NCBI GenBank assembly: GCA_965221835.1
Contig: OZ244916.1
Span: 417,772-481,771 of the forward strand
Source: Gammaproteobacteria bacterium
GTDB lineage: Bacteria > Pseudomonadota > Gammaproteobacteria > Tethybacterales > Persebacteraceae
DNA length: 64,000 nt
Direction: 5' to 3'
In this document: piece by piece, positions 3,180-63,333 of the stretch
How the letters are laid out: every line of letters begins with the position of its first letter
How positions within the stretch are numbered: position 1 is the stretch's first letter
Notes under the pieces: generated by a model
Told to the model about the DNA's origin: nothing
Databases searched by the model: none
What the model saw: only the letters and a program-made list of their open reading frames with translations
Made by a program: the position numbers and the translations under genes

Positions 3180-3206
3180 ATTCCGATTTTCATCGGAATT
3201 TTTTTT
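3180..3206. terminator. 20-bp palindrome ATTCCGAT-TTTC-ATCGGAAT followed by a T-run between convergent genes
   Basis: Perfect 8-bp stem, 4-nt loop; same family as the palindromes at 34718-34869 and 63314. Confidence 0.6.
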
Positions 3207-3215
3207 GGGCGCGTT

Positions 3216-4898
3216 TTATGCAATTTCGTGCGGGAAGTGTTGCAGTATGCAGCGTATCGGATTCGGGGCGGCTTGACCGAGACCGCAAATGGAGGCGTCC
3301 GCCATTGCGACCGATAATTCTTCCAACAAATCCGCGTCCCATTGCGGGTTTTCCATCAGTTTGACCGCTTTTGCGGTACCGACACGGCAAGGCGTGCATT
3401 GTCCGCACGATTCGTCCGCAAAAAACTGCATCATATTTAACGCCGCATCGCGCGCGCGAAATCGCGAAGATAAAACAATTACCGCCGCCGAACCGATAAA
3501 CGAATTTTTGTCCGCTTGTTGCAAAGTGTCAAAATCCAGCGGAATGTCCGCCATCGCGGCGGGTAAGATTCCGCCCGATGCACCGCCCGGCAGATAGGCG
3601 TATAACGTTTCGCCGTCCGCCATTCCGCCGCAATAATCGTTTATCAATTCCCGCACCGTAATGCCTGCTGGGGCGAGATGCACGCCGGGTTTTGCGACCC
3701 GTCCCGAAACCGAAAAAGAACGCAAACCGCGTCGTCCGTTTCGCCCTTCGCCGGAAAATATTTCCGCGCCGCGCCGCAAAATGTGCGGCACCCAGTGCAG
3801 TGTTTCCATATTGTGTTCCAGTGTCGGGCGACCGAACGCGCCGACTTGTGCGAGATAGGGCGGGCGCAATCGCGGTTCGCCGCGTTTGCCTTCTACCGAT
3901 TCGATCATTGCCGATTCTTCGCCGCAAATGTACGCCCCCGCACCGCGCCGTAAAAAGATTTTCGCCGCGCAAAAATCTGCCGCCGTCAATGCCGCAATTT
4001 CCGGTTCCAGCATCGCGCGGCAGCCGTGATATTCGTCCCGCAAATAAACATATATTTCGTCCGCACCGACAAACCATGCGGCGATTAATGCGCCTTCCAA
4101 AAATGCGTGCGGCGTTTGTTCCAAATAAAAGCGATCCTTAAATGTGCCGGGTTCGCCTTCGTCTATGTTGACCGCGACAACTTTGCGTCCTGCGGCATCG
4201 CGGACGAATTGCCATTTGCGTGCGGCGGGAAATCCTGCGCCGCCCAATCCGCGCAATCCTGCATTTTCTAACGCCGCCTGCACCGATTCGGGTGTGCGTT
4301 TGCCGTTTGCGCATTCGCGATAAACTTCATAACCGCCGTCTTTGCGATAATCGGCGAAAGTTTGCGCCGCCGGTTTTGTCGCGGAAAAACTTCCCGCCGA
4401 AAATGCCGCGGCGACCGTTTCGGAATCGGCATTTTCCATCGCGTTTTGTCCGACAACGGCAACCGGTGCGGCGGCGCATCTGCCGACACACGGGGCGGCG
4501 ATAATGCGCGCTTTTTCGCCTAACAAATCGCGCAACTTTTGCATTAAATCTGCCGCCCCCGCCATTTCGCACGACAAAGAACGGCAGATGCGGATGGTCG
4601 CCGCCGGTTTGTTTTCGCCGTCCGCCGGCACATCAAAATGGTGATAAAAAGTCGCTACTTCATACACCGCGGCGAAAGGCAGATTCATCAATTCGGCGAG
4701 TGCCGCGAGATTTTCGCGCGCGAGACAACCTTCGGCGTCTTGAATTCGGTGTAGATTTTCAATTAGATATTCTTTTTCGCACGGGGCGGCGGCGATTATT
4801 TCGCGCACCCGGGCGCGGGCGTGTGCGGAAACCGCGCGCCCTTTGGGTTTGCGTTTTGCCGCCATCCGCCGAAATTGTACCGGTTTTTGTTCGCTCAC
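3216..4898 (-). CDS. NuoE-NuoF fusion flavoprotein, NAD-dependent formate dehydrogenase beta-subunit-like
   Basis: VATFYHHF, C-x4-C...C-x3-C [2Fe-2S], GLRGLGGAGFP, DEGEPGTFKDR, GAGAYICGEES, ESCGQCTPCRVG, SICGLG; GTG start with AAGGAG upstream. Confidence 0.85.
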   Translation of the reverse strand: MSEQKPVQFRRMAAKRKPKGRAVSAHARARVREIIAAAPCEKEYLIENLHRIQDAEGCLARENLAALAELMNLPFAAVYEVATFYHHFDVPADGENKPAATIRICRSLSCEMAGAADLMQKLRDLLGEKARIIAAPCVGRCAAAPVAVVGQNAMENADSETVAAAFSAGSFSATKPAAQTFADYRKDGGYEVYRECANGKRTPESVQAALENAGLRGLGGAGFPAARKWQFVRDAAGRKVVAVNIDEGEPGTFKDRFYLEQTPHAFLEGALIAAWFVGADEIYVYLRDEYHGCRAMLEPEIAALTAADFCAAKIFLRRGAGAYICGEESAMIESVEGKRGEPRLRPPYLAQVGAFGRPTLEHNMETLHWVPHILRRGAEIFSGEGRNGRRGLRSFSVSGRVAKPGVHLAPAGITVRELINDYCGGMADGETLYAYLPGGASGGILPAAMADIPLDFDTLQQADKNSFIGSAAVIVLSSRFRARDAALNMMQFFADESCGQCTPCRVGTAKAVKLMENPQWDADLLEELSVAMADASICGLGQAAPNPIRCILQHFPHEIA

Positions 4899-30095: not shown

Positions 30096-31502
30096 ATGTA
30101 CGATTTATTGCGAAATGCGATTTTGGCGGCGGCGCTTTGTCTTGCCGGAATCGCGTCCGCCCAAAGTTTGCCGTCCGATGTGCGCGCGATAATGAAACGA
30201 CACGGCATTTCGCCCTCCCGCGCCGGCGTTGTCGTCCGCTATGTCGGCGAAGATGCGCCGCTTTTGTCGCATCGTGCGGACAACGCATTCAATCCGGCGT
30301 CGTTGACAAAACTGCCGCTGGCGTTTGCGGCGTTTGACATTCTCGGTCCGAATCATAAATGGAAAACGGTTTTTGCGCGCAACGGCGAAATCCGCAACGG
30401 CGTTTTGCACGGCGATTTGATTATTATCGGCGGCGGAGACCCGCATTTGACAATGGAGCGATTTGTCGCGCAAATTAACGACTTACGCAGCCGCGGTTTG
30501 CGCGCATTTACCGGCGCGCTAATTATAGACGATACGCTTTTTTCGTTGCCGCCGCACGACAATGCGGCATTTGACGGCGCACCCAACAAACCATACAATG
30601 CCGCCGGTGCCGCGCTGGCGGTCAATTTCAACTCCCATAAAATTGTGTTGTCGCCATCGGCGGCGGGAACGAATGTGTATGTGGAACCGCCGAACGAAAA
30701 TTTTGTTATAGACAACAAAATCCAAAACGGGCGGACTCGTTGTCGTAATTGGCGTGGACGAATTTCCGAACGCTATCTCGGCGATGTCAACAAAATTACG
30801 CTGCAATTGCGCGGCAGATTTTCGCCCCGTTGCGGCGAACAGTCGTTTTATACGAGTGCGTTGTCGCATGCGGCGAATGCGGCGGGCGTATTTGGTGCGG
30901 TGTGGCAGCGGCTGGGAGGAGAATGGCGGGGAGAATGGCGGACGGCGAAAGCACCGCAAACCGCCGAAACAATTGCGACATTTGAATCGCTGCCGATAGC
31001 GTCCGCAGTTGCGGCAATGAATAAATTCAGCAACAATGTCATCGCGCGCAACATTTTTTTGTCGCTGGCGGCGGCGGGCGGCGAAACGCCTTATACGCCC
31101 GATTCCGCGCGCACCGTTTTCAACAAATGGATGCGCGATGCGGGCATTTCCGGCGATTTTTATGTGGACAACGGCAGCGGACTTTCGCGAGAAGGAAGAA
31201 TGACGGCGGGGCAGTTTGCCGAAATATTGGCGCAAATCGCAGCACATCCGTTGCGTGCCGAAATCATTTCCTCGTTGCCGTTATTGGGGGCGGACGGCAC
31301 TCTGGCGAATCGCTTGCGAAAAACCGCCTACGGGCGAGGACACTTAAAAACCGGCAGTTTGAACGGTGTCAAAAATATCGCCGGTTTTTTGCGCGATGAT
31401 TCGGGACGCGAAATTATTTTTGTCTGTTTGGTCAACGGCGGCGGTGCCTCCGCCCGCCGCTTTCAAGACGCAATGATCAAATGGGCGATTACGCGAAAAT
31501 GA
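30096..31502 (+). CDS. dacB: D-alanyl-D-alanine carboxypeptidase/endopeptidase PBP4
   Basis: Signal peptide; PASLTK (SxxK), SNN, DNGSGLSR, KTG motifs. Confidence 0.93.
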   Translation: MYDLLRNAILAAALCLAGIASAQSLPSDVRAIMKRHGISPSRAGVVVRYVGEDAPLLSHRADNAFNPASLTKLPLAFAAFDILGPNHKWKTVFARNGEIRNGVLHGDLIIIGGGDPHLTMERFVAQINDLRSRGLRAFTGALIIDDTLFSLPPHDNAAFDGAPNKPYNAAGAALAVNFNSHKIVLSPSAAGTNVYVEPPNENFVIDNKIQNGRTRCRNWRGRISERYLGDVNKITLQLRGRFSPRCGEQSFYTSALSHAANAAGVFGAVWQRLGGEWRGEWRTAKAPQTAETIATFESLPIASAVAAMNKFSNNVIARNIFLSLAAAGGETPYTPDSARTVFNKWMRDAGISGDFYVDNGSGLSREGRMTAGQFAEILAQIAAHPLRAEIISSLPLLGADGTLANRLRKTAYGRGHLKTGSLNGVKNIAGFLRDDSGREIIFVCLVNGGGASARRFQDAMIKWAITRK

Positions 31503-31519
31503 TAGCGTTTTTTCGCGAA

Positions 31520-32142
31520 AAATAAATTTTTGGAATTTCCGCAAAATGACCGAAAAAACCCCCGTCATTCCCGCGAAAGCGGGAATCCATTATGGGCGAT
31601 TAATTTTGGAGTTTCGCGAATTTTACGCAAAAATTAAGTTTGGAATTTCCGCGCATTTTTTTGTGAAAAACGAGGTGAATGCGGGAGTTTGTCGGTAAAA
31701 ATGGATTCCCGCTTTCGCGGGAATGACGGCGGGAATCCGCACATTTTACGCGAAAAATTAATTTTGGAATTCCCGCAAAATGACCGAAAAAAACCCCGTC
31801 ATTCCCGCGAAAGCGGGAATCCATTCGGGGAGATTAATTTTAGAATTTCGCGAATTTTACGCGAAAATTAAGTTTGGAATTTTCGCGCATTTTTTTGTGA
31901 AAAACGAGGTGAATGCGGGAATTTGTCGGTAAAAATGGATTCCCGCTTTCGCGGGAATGACGGCGGGAATCCGCACATTTTACGCGAAAAATTAATTTTG
32001 GAATTTCCGCGCGTTTTTTGTGAAAAACGAGGTGAATGCGGGAATTTGTCGGTGAAAATGGATTCCCGCTTTCGCGGGAATGACGGCGGGAATCCGCACA
32101 TTTTACGCGAAAAATTAATTTTGGAATTCCCGCAAAACGACC
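31520..32142. repeat. Left array of dRS3/CGTC-type palindromes GTCATTCCCGCGAAAGCGGGAATCCAT (5 copies) with repeated spacers
   Basis: Copies at 31564 (F), 31701 (R), 31798 (F), 31935 (R), 32058 (R). Confidence 0.95.
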
Positions 32143-32177
32143 AAAAAAAAGCGGCGAGTTTCCCCGCCGCCTTTTTT
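32143..32177. terminator. Probable bidirectional intrinsic terminator
   Basis: A8-GCGGCG-N8-CGCCGC-C-T6 just after the stop of the Cys-rich gene. Confidence 0.7.
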
Positions 32178-32186
32178 CTCCCGAAA

Positions 32187-33947
32187 TTAAAACCGATGAA
32201 TCGCGTTTATTTGGAATCGGGCGGTTTCGGAAAAGTTGTTTGCGTTTTCCCATTTGAATCCGGCGGAGGGGCGGATTTGCCAATTGTTATAACGGAATTC
32301 GCTTTGCAAATTTAACGAGTTTTGCGTGTCAAACTCGTTATCGGCATATTCGGAATGCAATCGGTAAACCGGCGATATATTCCAAACTCCGCCCGTGAGA
32401 TTTGCCGACAGCGAAAAATCATAATCGGCAGTTTCGCCCGCAACCGATTCGGAAAATGCCGCCGCCCAAAAATCCGCCGTGTATTTTCCGCCGCTTGTGT
32501 AGCGAAAATCAGCGAATTCGCCGTTTGCGTTTGCTTGTTTTGCGGAATAATAAAAATGCCATTTATCTTTTCGCAAATCCATCCGTCCGCCCGCATTTGC
32601 GGAATATCCGCTTTCGGTTATGGAATAGTCGAAATCGGGCGAGAATGAAAACAGCGAAAAATCGCCGCCTGCAACATAAGTCGCCGCCGCTGCGATAATA
32701 AAAATGCCCGCCCCGATATATGCGAATTCTTTCGGTCTGCCGCTTCCATTTTGCGTTGCGGCGTTCGGATTGGTCGCACTGCAAAAGCCGGTTTCGGTTG
32801 CGGCGGAATCGTAAAACGGCAACTCCGTCAAACTATTGCAATCCGTTTGCCCTGTCGCCGCACGGCAGGAAAAGGCGTTTTCGCCATCGTCTTGCAATAT
32901 CGGCAATTCATCGGTTGCACATTCGCATTCATTTTGAGCATTTGCCGTTCCCGTCGTTGCCGTTCCGCAAGTCGGCGGCGGGGGCGGAGTTTCGCACATT
33001 TGCATATTGGAACCAGATACGAAAACATCCCCTTCGGTTGCACATTCGCATTGATTTTGAGTTGCCGTTCCCGTCGTTCCATCTCCGCAAGTCCGAATCT
33101 CTTCGCATCGGTTGGGAGAAACGGCGTCGTTAAAAAATTCGTCCGGGCAATCGGCGGCGTTTCGGGGAGCACGGCAGGAAAATGTATTTTCGCGTTCTTC
33201 CAAAATCGGAAATGCGGAGTTAAGACATTCGCAAACTCCCGCATCGTTTAATGTTGCATTGTCGGTGCAATTCGGGGCGGTGTTTGTGCAAATTTGGGTT
33301 CTCGGATTAAAATACATGTACCCTTCATCCATGCACTCTTCCAAACTTTCCGCCGCACGGCAACTCTCCGCATCTATCGGAATCTGAGCATCAGTCGCAC
33401 AATCGCAGTTTCCATCGCCGTCTCCATCCGTAAATGTCGTGCCTTCGCCGCAATTCAAGGTGGGTTCATCACGCATAGTGCATTCATCCGCTTGCGGAAA
33501 TCTTGGATCGCTCGTATCCTCCGCCGCATCACCATCGCCGCAAAATCTCATATTGGTTACTGGAATTAAATTAGTCGTACACAGGGCTCCTTCATTGCCC
33601 GCTTGGCATATTGCAAGAAGGTTATCATAAGCGAGTCGTCTTGTTCCTTCCGCATGTTTAAGGAACGAAACATTATTAAAAGTCACAACTTGATTGTTTC
33701 CAAATCTGTGAATTCGGTCTGCATCCGTTGTGTTGCAAAGGGCGGTATCACCTAAAAAGTTGGCAATGCAATGTGCCCTCGCCGCATTTTCCGCAGCATC
33801 GGCGGTATCATAATCGACGAATATGTAAACTTCGACTCTATCTGGGTCTGGATTAAGATAAAATCCGAATGCCGCCGCATTTTGCGAAAATCCTGCCGCA
33901 AATAAAACGGCGGCGGCGATGATGATTTTTTTGATTGTGTTTTTCAT
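32187..33947 (-). CDS. Secreted Cys-rich (EGF-like repeat) surface protein with C-terminal beta-barrel-like domain, 586 aa
   Basis: GAGGAG RBS; Sec signal MKNTIKKIIIAAAVLFAAGFSQNAAA; 28 Cys with four CxC modules; hydrophobic segment, then aromatic alternating strands ending in F. Confidence 0.85.
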   Translation of the reverse strand: MKNTIKKIIIAAAVLFAAGFSQNAAAFGFYLNPDPDRVEVYIFVDYDTADAAENAARAHCIANFLGDTALCNTTDADRIHRFGNNQVVTFNNVSFLKHAEGTRRLAYDNLLAICQAGNEGALCTTNLIPVTNMRFCGDGDAAEDTSDPRFPQADECTMRDEPTLNCGEGTTFTDGDGDGNCDCATDAQIPIDAESCRAAESLEECMDEGYMYFNPRTQICTNTAPNCTDNATLNDAGVCECLNSAFPILEERENTFSCRAPRNAADCPDEFFNDAVSPNRCEEIRTCGDGTTGTATQNQCECATEGDVFVSGSNMQMCETPPPPPTCGTATTGTANAQNECECATDELPILQDDGENAFSCRAATGQTDCNSLTELPFYDSAATETGFCSATNPNAATQNGSGRPKEFAYIGAGIFIIAAAATYVAGGDFSLFSFSPDFDYSITESGYSANAGGRMDLRKDKWHFYYSAKQANANGEFADFRYTSGGKYTADFWAAAFSESVAGETADYDFSLSANLTGGVWNISPVYRLHSEYADNEFDTQNSLNLQSEFRYNNWQIRPSAGFKWENANNFSETARFQINAIHRF

Positions 33948-33980
33948 TTGTTTTCTCCTCTGATTAAAAATGTCTGCGAA

Positions 33981-33989
33981 AGTATAACA
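33981..33989 (-). promoter_or_regulatory. Extended -10 promoter (TGnTATACT) of the Cys-rich protein gene
   Basis: TGTTATACT about 34 nt upstream of the ATG; TTGCAA further upstream (19-nt spacer). Confidence 0.6.
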
Positions 33990-34009
33990 CACATTCCGCC
34001 CGAATTTGC

Positions 34010-34880
34010 AAAAGGCGGGAATTGAATCGGACGGCGGCGGACGGCGGAATTCCGCGAAAAATGGCGGAATTCCGCAAAAAAAACCCCGCAATTCCCGCCG
34101 AAAAAACCCCGTCATTCCCGCCGCAAAAACCCCGCAATTCCCGCCGAAAACAAGAAAAAACCCCCGTCATTCCCGCGAAAGCGGGAATCCATTTTGAGGA
34201 ACAAAACTGCGAATTCACCTCTTTTTTCCACAAAAAAATGCGCGGGAATTCCAAAATTAATCGCCCTGAATGGATTCCCGCTTTCGCGGGAATGACGGCG
34301 GGGAGGGCGGGAATTCGGCGGCGAAAATCGGACGGCGGCGGGCGGCGGAATTCCACAAAAAAACGGCGTGAACGCGGGATTTATCGGCGAAAATGGATTC
34401 CCGCTTTCGCGGGAATGACGGCGGGGAGGGCGGGAATTCGGCGGCGAAAATCGGACGGCGGCGGGCGGCGGAATTCCACAAAAAAACGGCGCGAACACGG
34501 GAATTTGTCGGCGAAAATGGATTCCCGCTTTCGCGGGAATGACGGCGGGGAGGGCGGGAATTCGGCGGCGAAAATCGGACGGCGGCGGGCGGCGGAATTC
34601 CACAAAAAAACGGCGTGAACACGGGAATTTATCGGCGAAAATGGATTCCCGCTTTCGCGGGAATGACGGCGGGGAGGGCGGGAATTCGGCGGCGAGAATC
34701 GGACGGCGGCGGGGGAGATTCCGATTTACATCGGAATGGTAAAAAATGACGGCGGCGGGGGAGATTCCGATTTACATCGGAATGGTAGAAATTGGAAATT
34801 AGGAAAAAAGAACCTTCCATTCCGGCGAACGCCGGAATCTCTGCGGGAGATTCCGATTTACATCGGAATGGTAAAAAATG
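34010..34880. repeat. Right array: 5 dRS3/CGTC-type palindromes (123-124 bp tandem period) plus 4 variant palindromes
   Basis: Main copies at 34166 (F), 34270, 34393, 34517, 34641 (R); ATTCCGAT-TTAC-ATCGGAAT at 34718, 34764, 34850; ATTCCGGC-GAAC-GCCGGAAT at 34819. Confidence 0.95.
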
Positions 34881-34934
34881 TCGGGCGAGGAGGGAACGCG
34901 GGAATGGAATCTGCGTAGGCGGTATAATTTGGGG

Positions 34935-36695
34935 ATGGATGCGGATGTTGCGATTATTGGGGGCGGGGCGGCGGGATTGAGTGCGGCGTTGTCGTTGCCG
35001 TCTTCGTTGCGTGTGGCGGTATTTTCTAAACGGGCGTTGGGGGAGTGCGCAAGTGCGAGGGCGCAAGGCGGAGTTGCGGCGGCATTATCCGCTGCCGACA
35101 ATACCGATTCGCATTTTGCCGATACGATTCGTGCCGGCGATGGACTCTGCAACGAAACGGTCGCCCGTGCAATAATAGAAGATGCGCCTGCTGCAATTGA
35201 TTTTCTTCGCATAAACGGCGTGCAATTTAATCGCGACAAAAAAGGAGAATTCGCGCTTGGAATGGAAGGCGGGCACTCGGCGAGGCGTATTGCGCATGTG
35301 GATGATGCGACCGGTGCGGCGATTGTTTCCGCCCTTGCGATGCGGGCGCAAATGCGCGACAATATTCGTTTTTATACGCAGCATATTGCGGTAAATCTTT
35401 TTTCGGATGGCGATTGTCGCGGATTTTATGCGTTGGATTTGGGCGGCGGAAAAATTGAATCGGTCAATGCGCGGGCGGTAGTTTTGGCGTGCGGCGGTGC
35501 GGGAAAGGCGTATTTATATGCGACAACGCCGCGCGATGCGACGGGGGACGGTGTGGCGATGGCGTATCGGGCGGGTTGTGCGATAACGAATATGGAGTTT
35601 GTGCAATTTCATCCGACTTGTTTGTATCATCCGCTGGCGGATTCGTTTTTGATTACTGAGGCGTTTCGGGGCGAAGGTGCAAGATTGTGCGATGGCGGCG
35701 GCAACTTTTTTATGGAAAATAGCGGTGCGGATGAGCTTTCGCCGCGCGATATTGTTGCCCGTGCGATAGATGCGGAAATGAAAAGCAGCGGTGCCGATTG
35801 CGTTTATTTGGATTTGTCGGCGCATTCGCCCGATTTTTGGCGGCAGCGTTTTCCGACGGTAATGGCGCGATGCGAATCGCTGGGTTTGGATGTTGCAACG
35901 CGCATTCCGGTGGTACCGGCGGCGCATTATTGTTGCGGCGGAGTACGCGCCGATTTGTGCGGGCGCACCGATTTGCCGGGGCTTTTTGCGATTGGCGAAA
36001 CGGCGGGAAATGGTTTGCATGGTGCGAATCGTTTGGCGAGTAATTCGCTTTTGGAATGTGTTGTTGCCGCCCGCCGTGCTGCACAAACGGCGGCGGAAGA
36101 GTTGCGTCCGTGCGGCGAAATTCCGCCGTGGGACGAAAGGCGAATTTCGCCTGCCGCCGAAAATGTGATGGTTGCGCATAACTGGGAGGAGTTGCGCCGC
36201 CTGATGTGGGATTATGTCGGGGTGGCGCGCAGTGATGAACGGCTGATTCGCGCGCGCCGCCGGATAGAATGGATTGGCGCGGAAATTGAAGAGTATTATC
36301 GGCGGCATGCGGTCAGTCGCGATTTTTTGGAGTTGCGAAATCTGGCGCAGTGCGCCGAACTCGTCATAGAAGGCGCGCTGGCACGGCGCGAAAGTCGCGG
36401 CTTGCATTTCAATATTAATTGTCCGCGCCGATTTTCGCGCGCCGCCGATACGGTTTTATGCAGCGATGATTTCATTCGCCGCGGGCGGGCGATAAACCGC
36501 AAATGCCCGTTTTCGGGGCGTCCGATAGTTGCGGGCGGGCTTACGGATTATCGCGGGCAAATCGCAGGTTTTTGCAATCCGGGATGTCGCGACAAATTTG
36601 CCGCCGCCGCCGCAAAGGGATTTTCGGGTGCGTCTGCAAAAATATTATCGGCGCGGGACGAATTAAATAAACGAATTGACGGCGCGGGCGTATAA
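34935..36695 (+). CDS. nadB: L-aspartate oxidase with C-terminal YHS-like domain
   Basis: GGGAAG, AQGGVAA, EGGHSARRIAH, EFVQFHPT, LITEAFRGEG, PAAHYCCGG, GLHGANRLASNSLLE, RRESRGLH. Confidence 0.93.
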   Translation: MDADVAIIGGGAAGLSAALSLPSSLRVAVFSKRALGECASARAQGGVAAALSAADNTDSHFADTIRAGDGLCNETVARAIIEDAPAAIDFLRINGVQFNRDKKGEFALGMEGGHSARRIAHVDDATGAAIVSALAMRAQMRDNIRFYTQHIAVNLFSDGDCRGFYALDLGGGKIESVNARAVVLACGGAGKAYLYATTPRDATGDGVAMAYRAGCAITNMEFVQFHPTCLYHPLADSFLITEAFRGEGARLCDGGGNFFMENSGADELSPRDIVARAIDAEMKSSGADCVYLDLSAHSPDFWRQRFPTVMARCESLGLDVATRIPVVPAAHYCCGGVRADLCGRTDLPGLFAIGETAGNGLHGANRLASNSLLECVVAARRAAQTAAEELRPCGEIPPWDERRISPAAENVMVAHNWEELRRLMWDYVGVARSDERLIRARRRIEWIGAEIEEYYRRHAVSRDFLELRNLAQCAELVIEGALARRESRGLHFNINCPRRFSRAADTVLCSDDFIRRGRAINRKCPFSGRPIVAGGLTDYRGQIAGFCNPGCRDKFAAAAAKGFSGASAKILSARDELNKRIDGAGV

Positions 36696-63313: not shown

Positions 63314-63333
63314 ATTCCGATAAAAATCGGAAT
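63314..63333. repeat. 20-bp palindrome ATTCCGAT-AAAA-ATCGGAAT (probable terminator/REP-like)
   Basis: Perfect 8-bp stem between convergent genes, followed by T-rich sequence. Confidence 0.6.

Follow-up and report, generated by a model that had tools for sequence, protein, structure and literature searches.

We analysed a window of 64,000 nucleotides of genomic DNA from a gammaproteobacterium of the Persebacteraceae (order Tethybacterales; GenBank assembly GCA_965221835.1, contig OZ244916.1, positions 417,772 to 481,771 of the forward strand) and centred the study on the interval between the housekeeping genes dacB and nadB, where a single gene for a putative surface protein, hereafter the cargo gene, is enclosed by two arrays of palindromic repeats that can fold as hairpins. 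The genome to which the window belongs, here called G000, consists of one contig of 1,984,335 bp with a G+C content of 52.9%, and it was compared with its relatives G001-G040, which makes 41 genomes in all. Positions without a genome label are those of the window, and positions in kb refer to G000.

Two hairpin arrays enclose a single gene between dacB and nadB

A search of the window for the 27-mer GTCATTCCCGCGAAAGCGGGAATCCAT, with up to 3 mismatches allowed, gave 10 matches, all of them exact, and the same 27-mer was found 0 times in 100 dinucleotide-preserving shuffles of the window. Five copies, at 31564(+), 31701(-), 31798(+), 31935(-) and 32058(-), lie between the stop codon of dacB and the 3' end of the cargo gene, and the other five, at 34166(+), 34270(-), 34393(-), 34517(-) and 34641(-), between the start of the cargo gene and nadB, in agreement with the initial annotation of this DNA, which had described a gene enclosed by two arrays of five exact copies each. 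Tandem Repeats Finder resolved the left side into repeats of period 234 (31509-32010, 2.1 copies) and period 123 (31854-32133, 2.3 copies), and the right side into a repeat of period 124 (34269-34713, 3.6 copies, 97% matches). The G+C content of the left array is 42.7%, well under the genome value given above. As single-stranded DNA (ssDNA), the left unit at 31558-31733 folds into a 33-pair hairpin (-55.1 kcal/mol, z -9.0) and the right unit at 34160-34302 into a long hairpin (-48.6 kcal/mol, z -9.6).

The two sides are also related to each other, the spacer of the right-array doublet being an inverted homologue of the left-array spacers. Positions 34161-34261 match the reverse complement of 31633-31732 with 86% identity (G000:449404-449503(-), query 4066-4166), and this homology on the opposite strand bears out the earlier proposal that the forward...reverse unit on the right is an inverted copy of the units on the left. 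The coordinates of these and the remaining features of the interval are collected in Table 1. Elsewhere in the window, the relaxed pattern ATTCC[CG]-N8-[CG]GGAAT finds two lone hairpins, at 3180-3199 and 63314-63333.

Table 1. Genes, arrays and other features of the dacB-nadB interval, in window coordinates.
Feature	Position	Strand	Description
dacB (D-Ala-D-Ala carboxypeptidase, S13), left housekeeping flank	30096..31502	+	PF02113, E 1.3e-80; stop codon 7 nt ahead of the left array
Left mosaic array	31509..32133	.	Five exact SRM/NTS-type 27-mers with A+T-rich spacers; two forward...reverse doublets, then one extra reverse copy
Intrinsic terminator of the cargo gene	32143..32178	-	16-pair stem and T run
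Cargo gene	32187..33947	-	586 aa: signal-peptide-like start, Cys-rich passenger, hydrophobic helix, C-terminal beta domain (~180 residues) ending in Phe
C-terminal anchor module (residues 395-586)	32190..32765	-	Predicted: one helix and 10-11 antiparallel strands
Candidate promoter and ribosome-binding region of the cargo gene	33948..34020	-	By eye: TTGCAA / 19 nt / TGnTATACT, GAGGAG before ATG
Short tandem repeats upstream of the cargo gene	34043..34150	.	20-bp x2 and 23-bp x3.2-3.6; carry the half-palindromes GTCATTCCCGCC and GCAATTCCCGCC
Right mosaic array	34160..34713	.	Five exact 27-mers; one short forward...reverse doublet, then 124-bp tandem units
Second hairpin family, ATTCCG-N8-CGGAAT	34702..34870	.	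Four copies (34719, 34765, 34820, 34851) in a 46-bp x2 repeat; abuts the nadB start
nadB (L-aspartate oxidase), right housekeeping flank	34878..36695 (start 34878/34936)	+	PF00890, E 8.7e-89

The cargo gene belongs to a family with a shared C-terminal module

The cargo protein begins with a signal-peptide-like stretch (MKNTIKKIIIAAAVLFAAGFSQNAAA), and its cysteines are confined to the passenger, with 28 of 28 in residues 27-400 and 0 in residues 401-586. Neither the protein nor its passenger has a match in Pfam, NCBIfam or the protein Atlas, which leaves unsubstantiated the term "eukaryote-like" that had been attached to it initially. The C-terminal ~190 residues (400-586) recur at ~40 sites in the genome with 45-79% identity, and the genes that carry them form the family considered throughout this work. 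An AlphaFold2 model of this anchor module based on 21 paralogues (mean pLDDT 74.7, pTM 0.62) found its best matches among PDB folds in outer-membrane beta-barrels, although these matches were weak (BpsOmp38, E 1e-4, TM-score 0.44; the EspP beta-domain) and TM-scores did not exceed 0.46; the cargo gave no match to PF03797 of Pfam. On the strength of the model, it is reasonable to regard the cargo as a surface protein, as it had been labelled. Its predicted layout resembles that of classical (type Va) autotransporter beta-domain anchors and small outer-membrane barrels in the succession of signal peptide, variable passenger, helix and C-terminal beta domain ending in Phe, and departs from type Va autotransporters in that its anchor has no Pfam or NCBIfam match, measures about 160 residues with 10-11 strands and reaches only the low TM-scores just given.

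A terminator and a promoter of its own had also been attributed to the cargo gene. The terminator was recovered, and its module (TAATTTCGGGAGAAAAAA...GGCGGCGGGGAAACTCGCCGCTTTTTTT) follows many genes of the family; a consensus scan for a promoter upstream of the cargo found none, and the candidate listed in Table 1, which comes from inspection by eye, is plausible. Runs X3 and X6 contain contigs in which position 33154 is connected back to 32860 through 14 additional letters (295 + 14 = 309 nt, in frame). Such a joint may reflect an allele whose passenger contains one further Cys-rich repeat module, or a contig from a paralogue. Contigs of these public runs are short and end at arrays, and the joints listed have sides of 19-52 nt and can derive from paralogous loci.

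The repeat has the sequence of a published Ssn-related motif

The core palindrome ATTCCC-N8-GGGAAT occurs in 171 copies in G000, the exact 27-mer in 69, and a second palindrome, ATTCCG-N8-CGGAAT, in 99. These 270 hairpins of two families fall into 66 clusters, 45 of which hold at least 2 hairpins and are the arrays counted below. Hairpins can be oriented by their flanks, and 60 forward...reverse pairs were found genome-wide; the commonest unit, of ~175 bp, is a long doublet present in 41 copies that are 93-97% uniform and whose ssDNA fold is one long hairpin with a z of about -9. The spacers measure 25-247 nt (median 87), have a G+C content of 46.6%, lower than that of the hairpins, and group into 44 families, about 10 of them recurrent and the largest with 70 members.

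As the initial annotation had recognized, the core corresponds to the dRS3 consensus, and CGTC in front of it and C behind it match the flanks of the NTS and Ssn-related motif (SRM) class described by Chenal et al. (2025, Nat Commun 16:2388, PMC11893778). According to that article, NTS is an oriented redefinition of part of dRS3 (CGTCATTCCCGCGMAVGCGGGAATCYRG), and NTS-like SRMs occur in many phyla in association with SsnA, a 94-aa single-domain GIY-YIG nuclease that binds the hairpin only as ssDNA, cleaves immediately upstream of it and reduces the integration of transforming DNA that bears it; the same article reports that NTS clusters adjoin membrane-protein genes and that symbionts of plants and animals are over-represented among SRM-rich genomes. 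With the SRM search sequence given there (HGTCWYN(0-2)YYVSBRHN(0-5)WNVSBRGN(0-2)RNCYNB) we obtained 167 matches in G000 (81 + 86) versus 1-5 in 10 first-order Markov genomes, and 158 of the 171 dRS3-type palindromes fit it. The strict Neisseria NTS consensus gave 0 matches on either strand of G000, where the local form ends in CCAT or CTAT and not in CYRG. Judged by these motif matches, the palindrome is an already published repeat of the NTS/dRS3 type, an SRM though not a canonical NTS. Its core pattern was found in at least 120 DNA stretches (one genome per species), with Bacteroidota, Chloroflexota, Planctomycetes, candidate-phyla-radiation bacteria and Neisseria lactamica among the hosts. 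The SRM search sequence recovers only 1 of the 99 ATTCCG-type hairpins. A single stem base pair, swapped from C:G to G:C, distinguishes the ATTCCGGCGTTCGCCGGAAT hairpin from the SRM core, and the flanks of this hairpin are quite different.

Neisserial intergenic mosaic element (NIME) arrays were reportedly first described by Parkhill et al. in 2000. Bentley et al. (2007, PMC1797815) present them as Neisseria elements in which dRS3 inverted repeats flank RS elements. The recurrent RS spacers of NIME measure about 50-150 bp. The arrays of G000 share with that description the 20-bp ATTCCC-N8-GGGAAT repeats set between recurrent spacer families of 25-247 nt, the great length of the arrays, the lower G+C content of the spacers and a position beside surface-protein genes and at variable loci. 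They differ in that the organism is not a Neisseria and its genome shows no uptake-sequence enrichment (7 copies of the 10-mer uptake sequence in 1.98 Mb), in having about 10 recurrent spacer families versus the more than 100 given for NIME, and in that no dRS3-integrating phage or Piv-type recombinase was found in G000. The initial suggestion of NIME-like arrays outside Neisseria is upheld as regards both architecture and host, but not as a novelty, such arrays having already been published as SRMs with Ssn nucleases in 2025. In the literature that we found, arrays beside a surface-protein family outside Neisseria appear only in PMC11893778, whose SRM tables may already include this lineage.

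Very uniform inverted hairpin doublets in intergenic clusters, together with a single-copy enzyme gene flanked by the repeat, are features shared with REP/BIME and REPIN-RAYT systems (Bertels and Rainey; 10.1101/2021.07.10.451892), from which the present repeats differ in having a GIY-YIG nuclease as partner in place of a Y1 (HUH) transposase and in the lack of a RAYT in G000. It could be argued that the doublets are currently mobile REPIN or MITE elements, non-autonomous units copied by a RAYT/IS200-type or other transposase with a target preference near family genes, and their terminal inverted repeats of at least 30 nt, their folding into one long hairpin and their uniformity over 41 copies would fit such a mode of life, as would the preprint just cited, where the counterpart in Neisseria is regarded as a REPIN associated with a group-2 RAYT. 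We nevertheless hold this to be extremely improbable. Searches for IS110/Piv (PF01548) and Y1/RAYT (PF01797) gave no match in G000, a Y1 transposase was likewise not found in G002 (55 hairpins) or G004 (267), and G003, with 5 Y1 matches, has only 5 hairpins; among the relatives, PF01797 matches and hairpin counts do not vary together. Moreover, 0 of the 4 RAYT loci checked carry hairpins, and none of the 8 isolated doublets inspected (8/8) shows a target-site duplication, their flanks being further repeat modules.

The gene of the associated nuclease survives as a relic

Across the 41 genomes, hairpin counts amount to 160 in G000, 55 in G002, 267 in G004, 348 in G009 and 26 in G019, and to at most 5 in each of the others. 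Intact small GIY-YIG genes, 96-106 aa long and scoring 48-59 bits with PF01541, were found in G002, G004 and G009, and the GIY-YIG matches in G000 are UvrC and a 118-aa I-TevI-like gene. A profile built from five Ssn-type proteins gave strong matches (E < 1e-30) in only 5 of the 40 relatives; in G007 and G023 an Ssn-type gene is present without a 27-mer-type hairpin. The same profile matched Povalibacter uvarum with an E of 5e-40, and Povalibacter is named as an SRM-rich genus in PMC11893778. Each of the 6 Ssn-type loci examined (5 from relatives and 1 from P. uvarum) has copies of the 27-mer, or close variants of it, next to the gene, and 4 of the 6 have them on both sides. The spacing of Tyr9, Tyr20 and Glu67 in these proteins equals that of Y6, Y17 and E64 in the published enzyme, the residues mutated in PMC11893778.

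In G000, the Ssn-type gene is dead. What is left of it, at G000 416547-416657 and 1.1 kb ahead of the window, is a relic of 37 residues that covers profile positions 38-74 of 97 and includes 2 TAG codons; of the Ssn-type protein only residues ~43-76 persist, the catalytic N-terminal half with GIY and YIG is missing, and no hairpin adjoins the remnant. The relic stands directly after the end of an open reading frame (ORF) with an HNH motif (...ELDHIKAKAKGG...CGACNRIKGD..., G000:C1:416200-416700, 1.1-1.6 kb before window position 1). Because motif-flanked intact genes are found in relatives and only a relic in G000, the hairpin is, as far as sequence comparison can tell, the cognate motif of the Ssn-type nuclease in this lineage, and G000 has lost that enzyme. 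With the nuclease gene reduced to a relic, the ~160 hairpins of G000 are therefore most likely orphaned and no longer cut. The initial annotation had pointed to an IS110/Piv, RAYT/HUH or GIY-YIG gene flanked by the same repeat as something to be sought elsewhere; of these, a GIY-YIG gene came to light, in relatives and as a relic here, and it encodes a nuclease and no recombinase, while IS110 and RAYT genes were not found in G000.

The resemblance to the NTS/SRM-SsnA system accordingly extends from the hairpin itself, which is oriented (CGTC + ATTCCCGCG-AAA-GCGGGAAT + C), fits the SRM search sequence and has a high copy number, to the clustering of the hairpins around membrane and surface-protein genes in a host that looks like an animal symbiont, and to the 97-aa single-domain GIY-YIG gene that the motif flanks in relatives. 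G000 departs from that system in the lack of a strict NTS match, in the decay of the nuclease gene, in the tie of its arrays to one lineage-specific family of ~40 genes and in the presence of a second, non-SRM hairpin family interleaved with the first.

The state of the nuclease gene bears directly on another explanation, according to which the arrays form an active Ssn-type restriction "insulator": the nuclease would cut incoming ssDNA at the hairpins, uncouple the surface gene from its housekeeping flanks and protect it from replacement or limit its repair. The layout of the interval suits this idea, with oriented hairpins on both strands and on both sides of the gene (plus strand at 31564, 31798 and 34166, minus strand at the seven other sites), which is the NTS-gene-NTS configuration tested in PMC11893778, and with a hairpin core that is nearly invariant. 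An insulator of this kind is nonetheless improbable in our judgement, the Ssn-type gene being a stop-containing relic without its catalytic half and the sole other small GIY-YIG gene being of the I-TevI type. This 118-aa gene (G000:C1:304451-304804) was considered as a partner of the hairpins and rejected, on account of that type (TIGR01453, 30.9 bits, under the cut-off) and because the occurrence of its relatives (in G003 and, weakly, in G004) does not follow the hairpin counts. Downstream of the gene, at a distance of 360 nt, there is an array of ATTCCG-type hairpins, and in G003 (contig C173) a 368-aa relative has ATTCCG-type hairpins on both sides, at 1 of the 3 G003 loci checked. A derivation of the doublet spacer from the flanks of the Ssn-type gene was also considered and discarded, the two having the hairpin alone in common.

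Arrays are concentrated beside genes of the cargo family

For the enrichment counts, genes were called as greedy longest ORFs, a crude procedure, and ORFs containing hairpins were taken out; 5 of the 40 matches to the C-terminal domain could not be assigned to a gene call and were dropped, so that 35 family genes were counted. A hairpin is found within 300 nt downstream of 16 of these 35 genes versus 46 of 1562 others, within 300 nt upstream of 13 versus 25, and within the same distance on both sides of 8 versus 3, which makes two-sided bracketing 150-fold enriched in the family. Seen from the arrays, the nearest neighbour is a family gene in 25 of 45 cases, with the family representing 35 of 1431 genes, and 17 of the 45 arrays start no more than 400 nt from where a family gene ends, a zone that covers 0.8% of the genome. 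The enrichment of arrays next to paralogues that share the C-terminal domain had been set beforehand as a test, and it proved to be strong.

A second element of ~170 bp, bounded by inverted CGCCCCYGACAWTTGTCRGGGGCG hairpins (22 genome-wide), replaces the SRM array at many family 3' ends. It was located at 13 of the 40 (for example at G000:C1:279884, 593022 and 863054) and is not present in the dacB-nadB interval; 29 of the 40 family 3' ends carry either an SRM-type array or this second element. Two arrays at G000:C1:331091-331310 and 346350-347307 lie 15 kb apart, and the second of them holds a 28-residue fragment of the family C-terminus (346745-346828).

The dacB-nadB slot varies among relatives and the family loci are mosaic

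In G003, which belongs to the same genus, the order is dprA-dacB-hairpins-family gene(-)-hairpins-nadB-cysS, as joined from two contigs with an exact 127-nt overlap, and the hairpins are of the ATTCCG and ATTCCT types. The gene in this slot is 55% identical to the cargo in the anchor and has no similarity to it in the passenger, with dacB and nadB 71-79% identical between the two genomes. In G001 and G002, dacB is followed directly by a homologue of the gene at 621 kb in G000, nadB has other neighbours and no cargo gene is present there, and the closed genomes of more distant relatives have dacB and nadB at widely separated sites. Because the relatives differ at this place, the dacB-nadB junction can be taken as a derived rearrangement point that holds a family gene and hairpins; the variation of the cargo among relatives on which the initial annotation had staked its proposal is real.

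Within G000, the loci at 50, 924, 1361 and 1368 kb share an unbroken identity of 86-91% over the 3' array and 1.0-1.9 kb of the 3' part of the gene, which ends inside the gene, and the link between arrays and family is for this reason partly one of co-duplication. The window locus has a different composition: its array finds its best match at 1229 kb (86%) and its gene at 279, 863 and 968 kb, with the break at ~32140-32151, just outside the terminator. At several other family 3' flanks the common terminator is cut short and joined to array modules. Moreover, across the family the identity to the cargo in the N-terminal part does not follow that in the anchor; the best N-terminal match, at 577 kb (46%), is among the weakest in the anchor (only 49%), and the best anchor match, at 279 kb (79%), has almost no N-terminal similarity. 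Since arrays and genes differ in their best matches, terminators are cut and N-terminal and anchor identities are uncoupled, we infer that the family loci are mosaics produced by repeated recombination.

These observations could also be accommodated by dedicated cassette exchange, the classical NIME hypothesis, in which arrays are selected as portable homology arms or enzyme sites and whole cassettes are swapped, inverted or copied between loci and between strains by means of natural transformation. The strong excess of two-sided bracketing in the family, the slot kept in G003 with a different passenger and the separate histories of passenger and anchor would all be consistent with it, as would dprA in the window, an intact comEC in the genome and the two arrays at 331 kb and 346 kb, separated by 15 kb. 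For Neisseria, PMC1797815 reports that 13 of 19 tbpB replacement fragments terminated within NIME arrays or close to them. Against these points, no enzyme is at hand for such a process, with neither IS110/Piv nor Y1 transposase found in G000 and the Ssn gene a relic, and the Ssn activity reported in PMC11893778 lowers rather than raises the integration of hairpin-bearing DNA. The association of arrays with the family is, in addition, absent in G002, G004 and G009. Four samples, taken from two studies, contained the cargo gene's unique parts nearly unchanged and at about the depth of the flanks (196-273 versus 240-304 in X3), and no alternative cargo or orientation was seen, although data of this kind are unable to reveal an inversion or an alternative cargo, orientation being unreadable at array breaks. 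The idea that the arrays serve to swap or invert the cargo, as put forward initially, found no event in its favour in these samples, and we regard dedicated cassette exchange as unlikely.

A model of orphaned arrays as passive homology

We favour, as the probable explanation, that the arrays are an orphaned Ssn/SRM repeat system which underwent duplication and recombination along with a family of fast-evolving surface proteins and which would now act as passive, recombination-prone homology. Both arrays of the window are mosaic SRM arrays of the NIME-like kind, built from an oriented hairpin of 27-28 nt, often in inverted pairs, and from a limited set of A+T-richer spacers. According to this model, the nuclease may have aided their spread in the past, and the loss of its gene in G000 would have left ~160 hairpins orphaned and uncut. 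The arrays are placed preferentially beside, and often on both sides of, the genes for ~40 putatively secreted proteins with an outer-membrane-type anchor, the window gene being one of at least 8 bracketed in this way. Recombination and duplication among array loci may then have moved the array, the terminator and the anchor-coding 3' part as a unit and joined this unit to different passenger-coding 5' parts. Today the arrays would be passive, and as dispersed, near-identical and hairpin-prone stretches they may act as hotspots for rearrangement and gene replacement without constituting a dedicated, enzyme-driven cassette machine.

Several observations weigh against this explanation or limit its reach. 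The hairpins are extremely well conserved, with 69 exact 27-mers, despite the dead nuclease gene, which may mean either that the loss was recent or that other selection is still acting, and a divergent nuclease that PF01541 misses may be encoded in G000. An alignment of the Ssn-type proteins gave no match in Neisseria lactamica NS19, and the only small GIY-YIG protein of that strain, of 91 aa, spaces its Tyr/Tyr/Glu residues differently and is encoded at a place with no dRS3 close by, so that no direct sequence link to the Neisseria enzyme was obtained. As regards the arrays themselves, 20 of 45 have no family neighbour and 76 of the 171 palindromes lie inside crude ORFs that read through arrays, and the Fisher P values for the family enrichment (1e-12 to 1e-15) overstate it because co-duplication with the arrays makes paralogues non-independent. 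Nor do the hairpins depend on the family, since the cargo query detected no family member in G004 (267 palindromes) or G009 (348) and 0 of 3 family loci in G002 have hairpins; on the genomes compared, the link between arrays and family is specific to the lineage of G000. Finally, no recombination event was seen in the four samples, in which contigs stop at 31557 and 34855 and none spans an array.

A bolder version of the model, which we consider doubtful, would have the orphaned Ssn arrays, the terminator and the anchor-coding 3' module act as portable homology arms that shuffle passengers among the ~40 loci and exchange cassettes between strains by transformation, with the loss of the nuclease removing a brake on the process. 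It would amount to an independently arisen, Neisseria-like antigenic diversification in an animal symbiont.

The type of repeat was known already. In this genome it is coupled with unusual tightness to a single gene family, the slot is conserved with cargo that differs, and the nuclease has been lost, a combination that provides a useful natural test case. Even in Neisseria it is debated whether NTS/dRS3 arrays promote recombination, restrict it or are selfish, and in G000 the same hairpin stands, in an unrelated, host-associated bacterium with a small genome, again concentrated around putatively host-facing surface proteins, here with no functional nuclease. Should strain comparisons reveal more frequent cargo exchange at bracketed than at unbracketed loci, the old idea of arrays promoting the variation of neighbouring genes would gain independent support, and that effect would be separated from the restriction activity of the nuclease. 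The arrays also have a practical consequence, in that they break short-read assemblies at the most variable surface genes, and metagenome-assembled genomes of this group would in consequence under-report such genes.

The hairpins are not the only abundant repeats of this genome, in which GCC-type triplet runs are extremely frequent, with 1666 occurrences of CGCCGCCGCC and its reverse complement.

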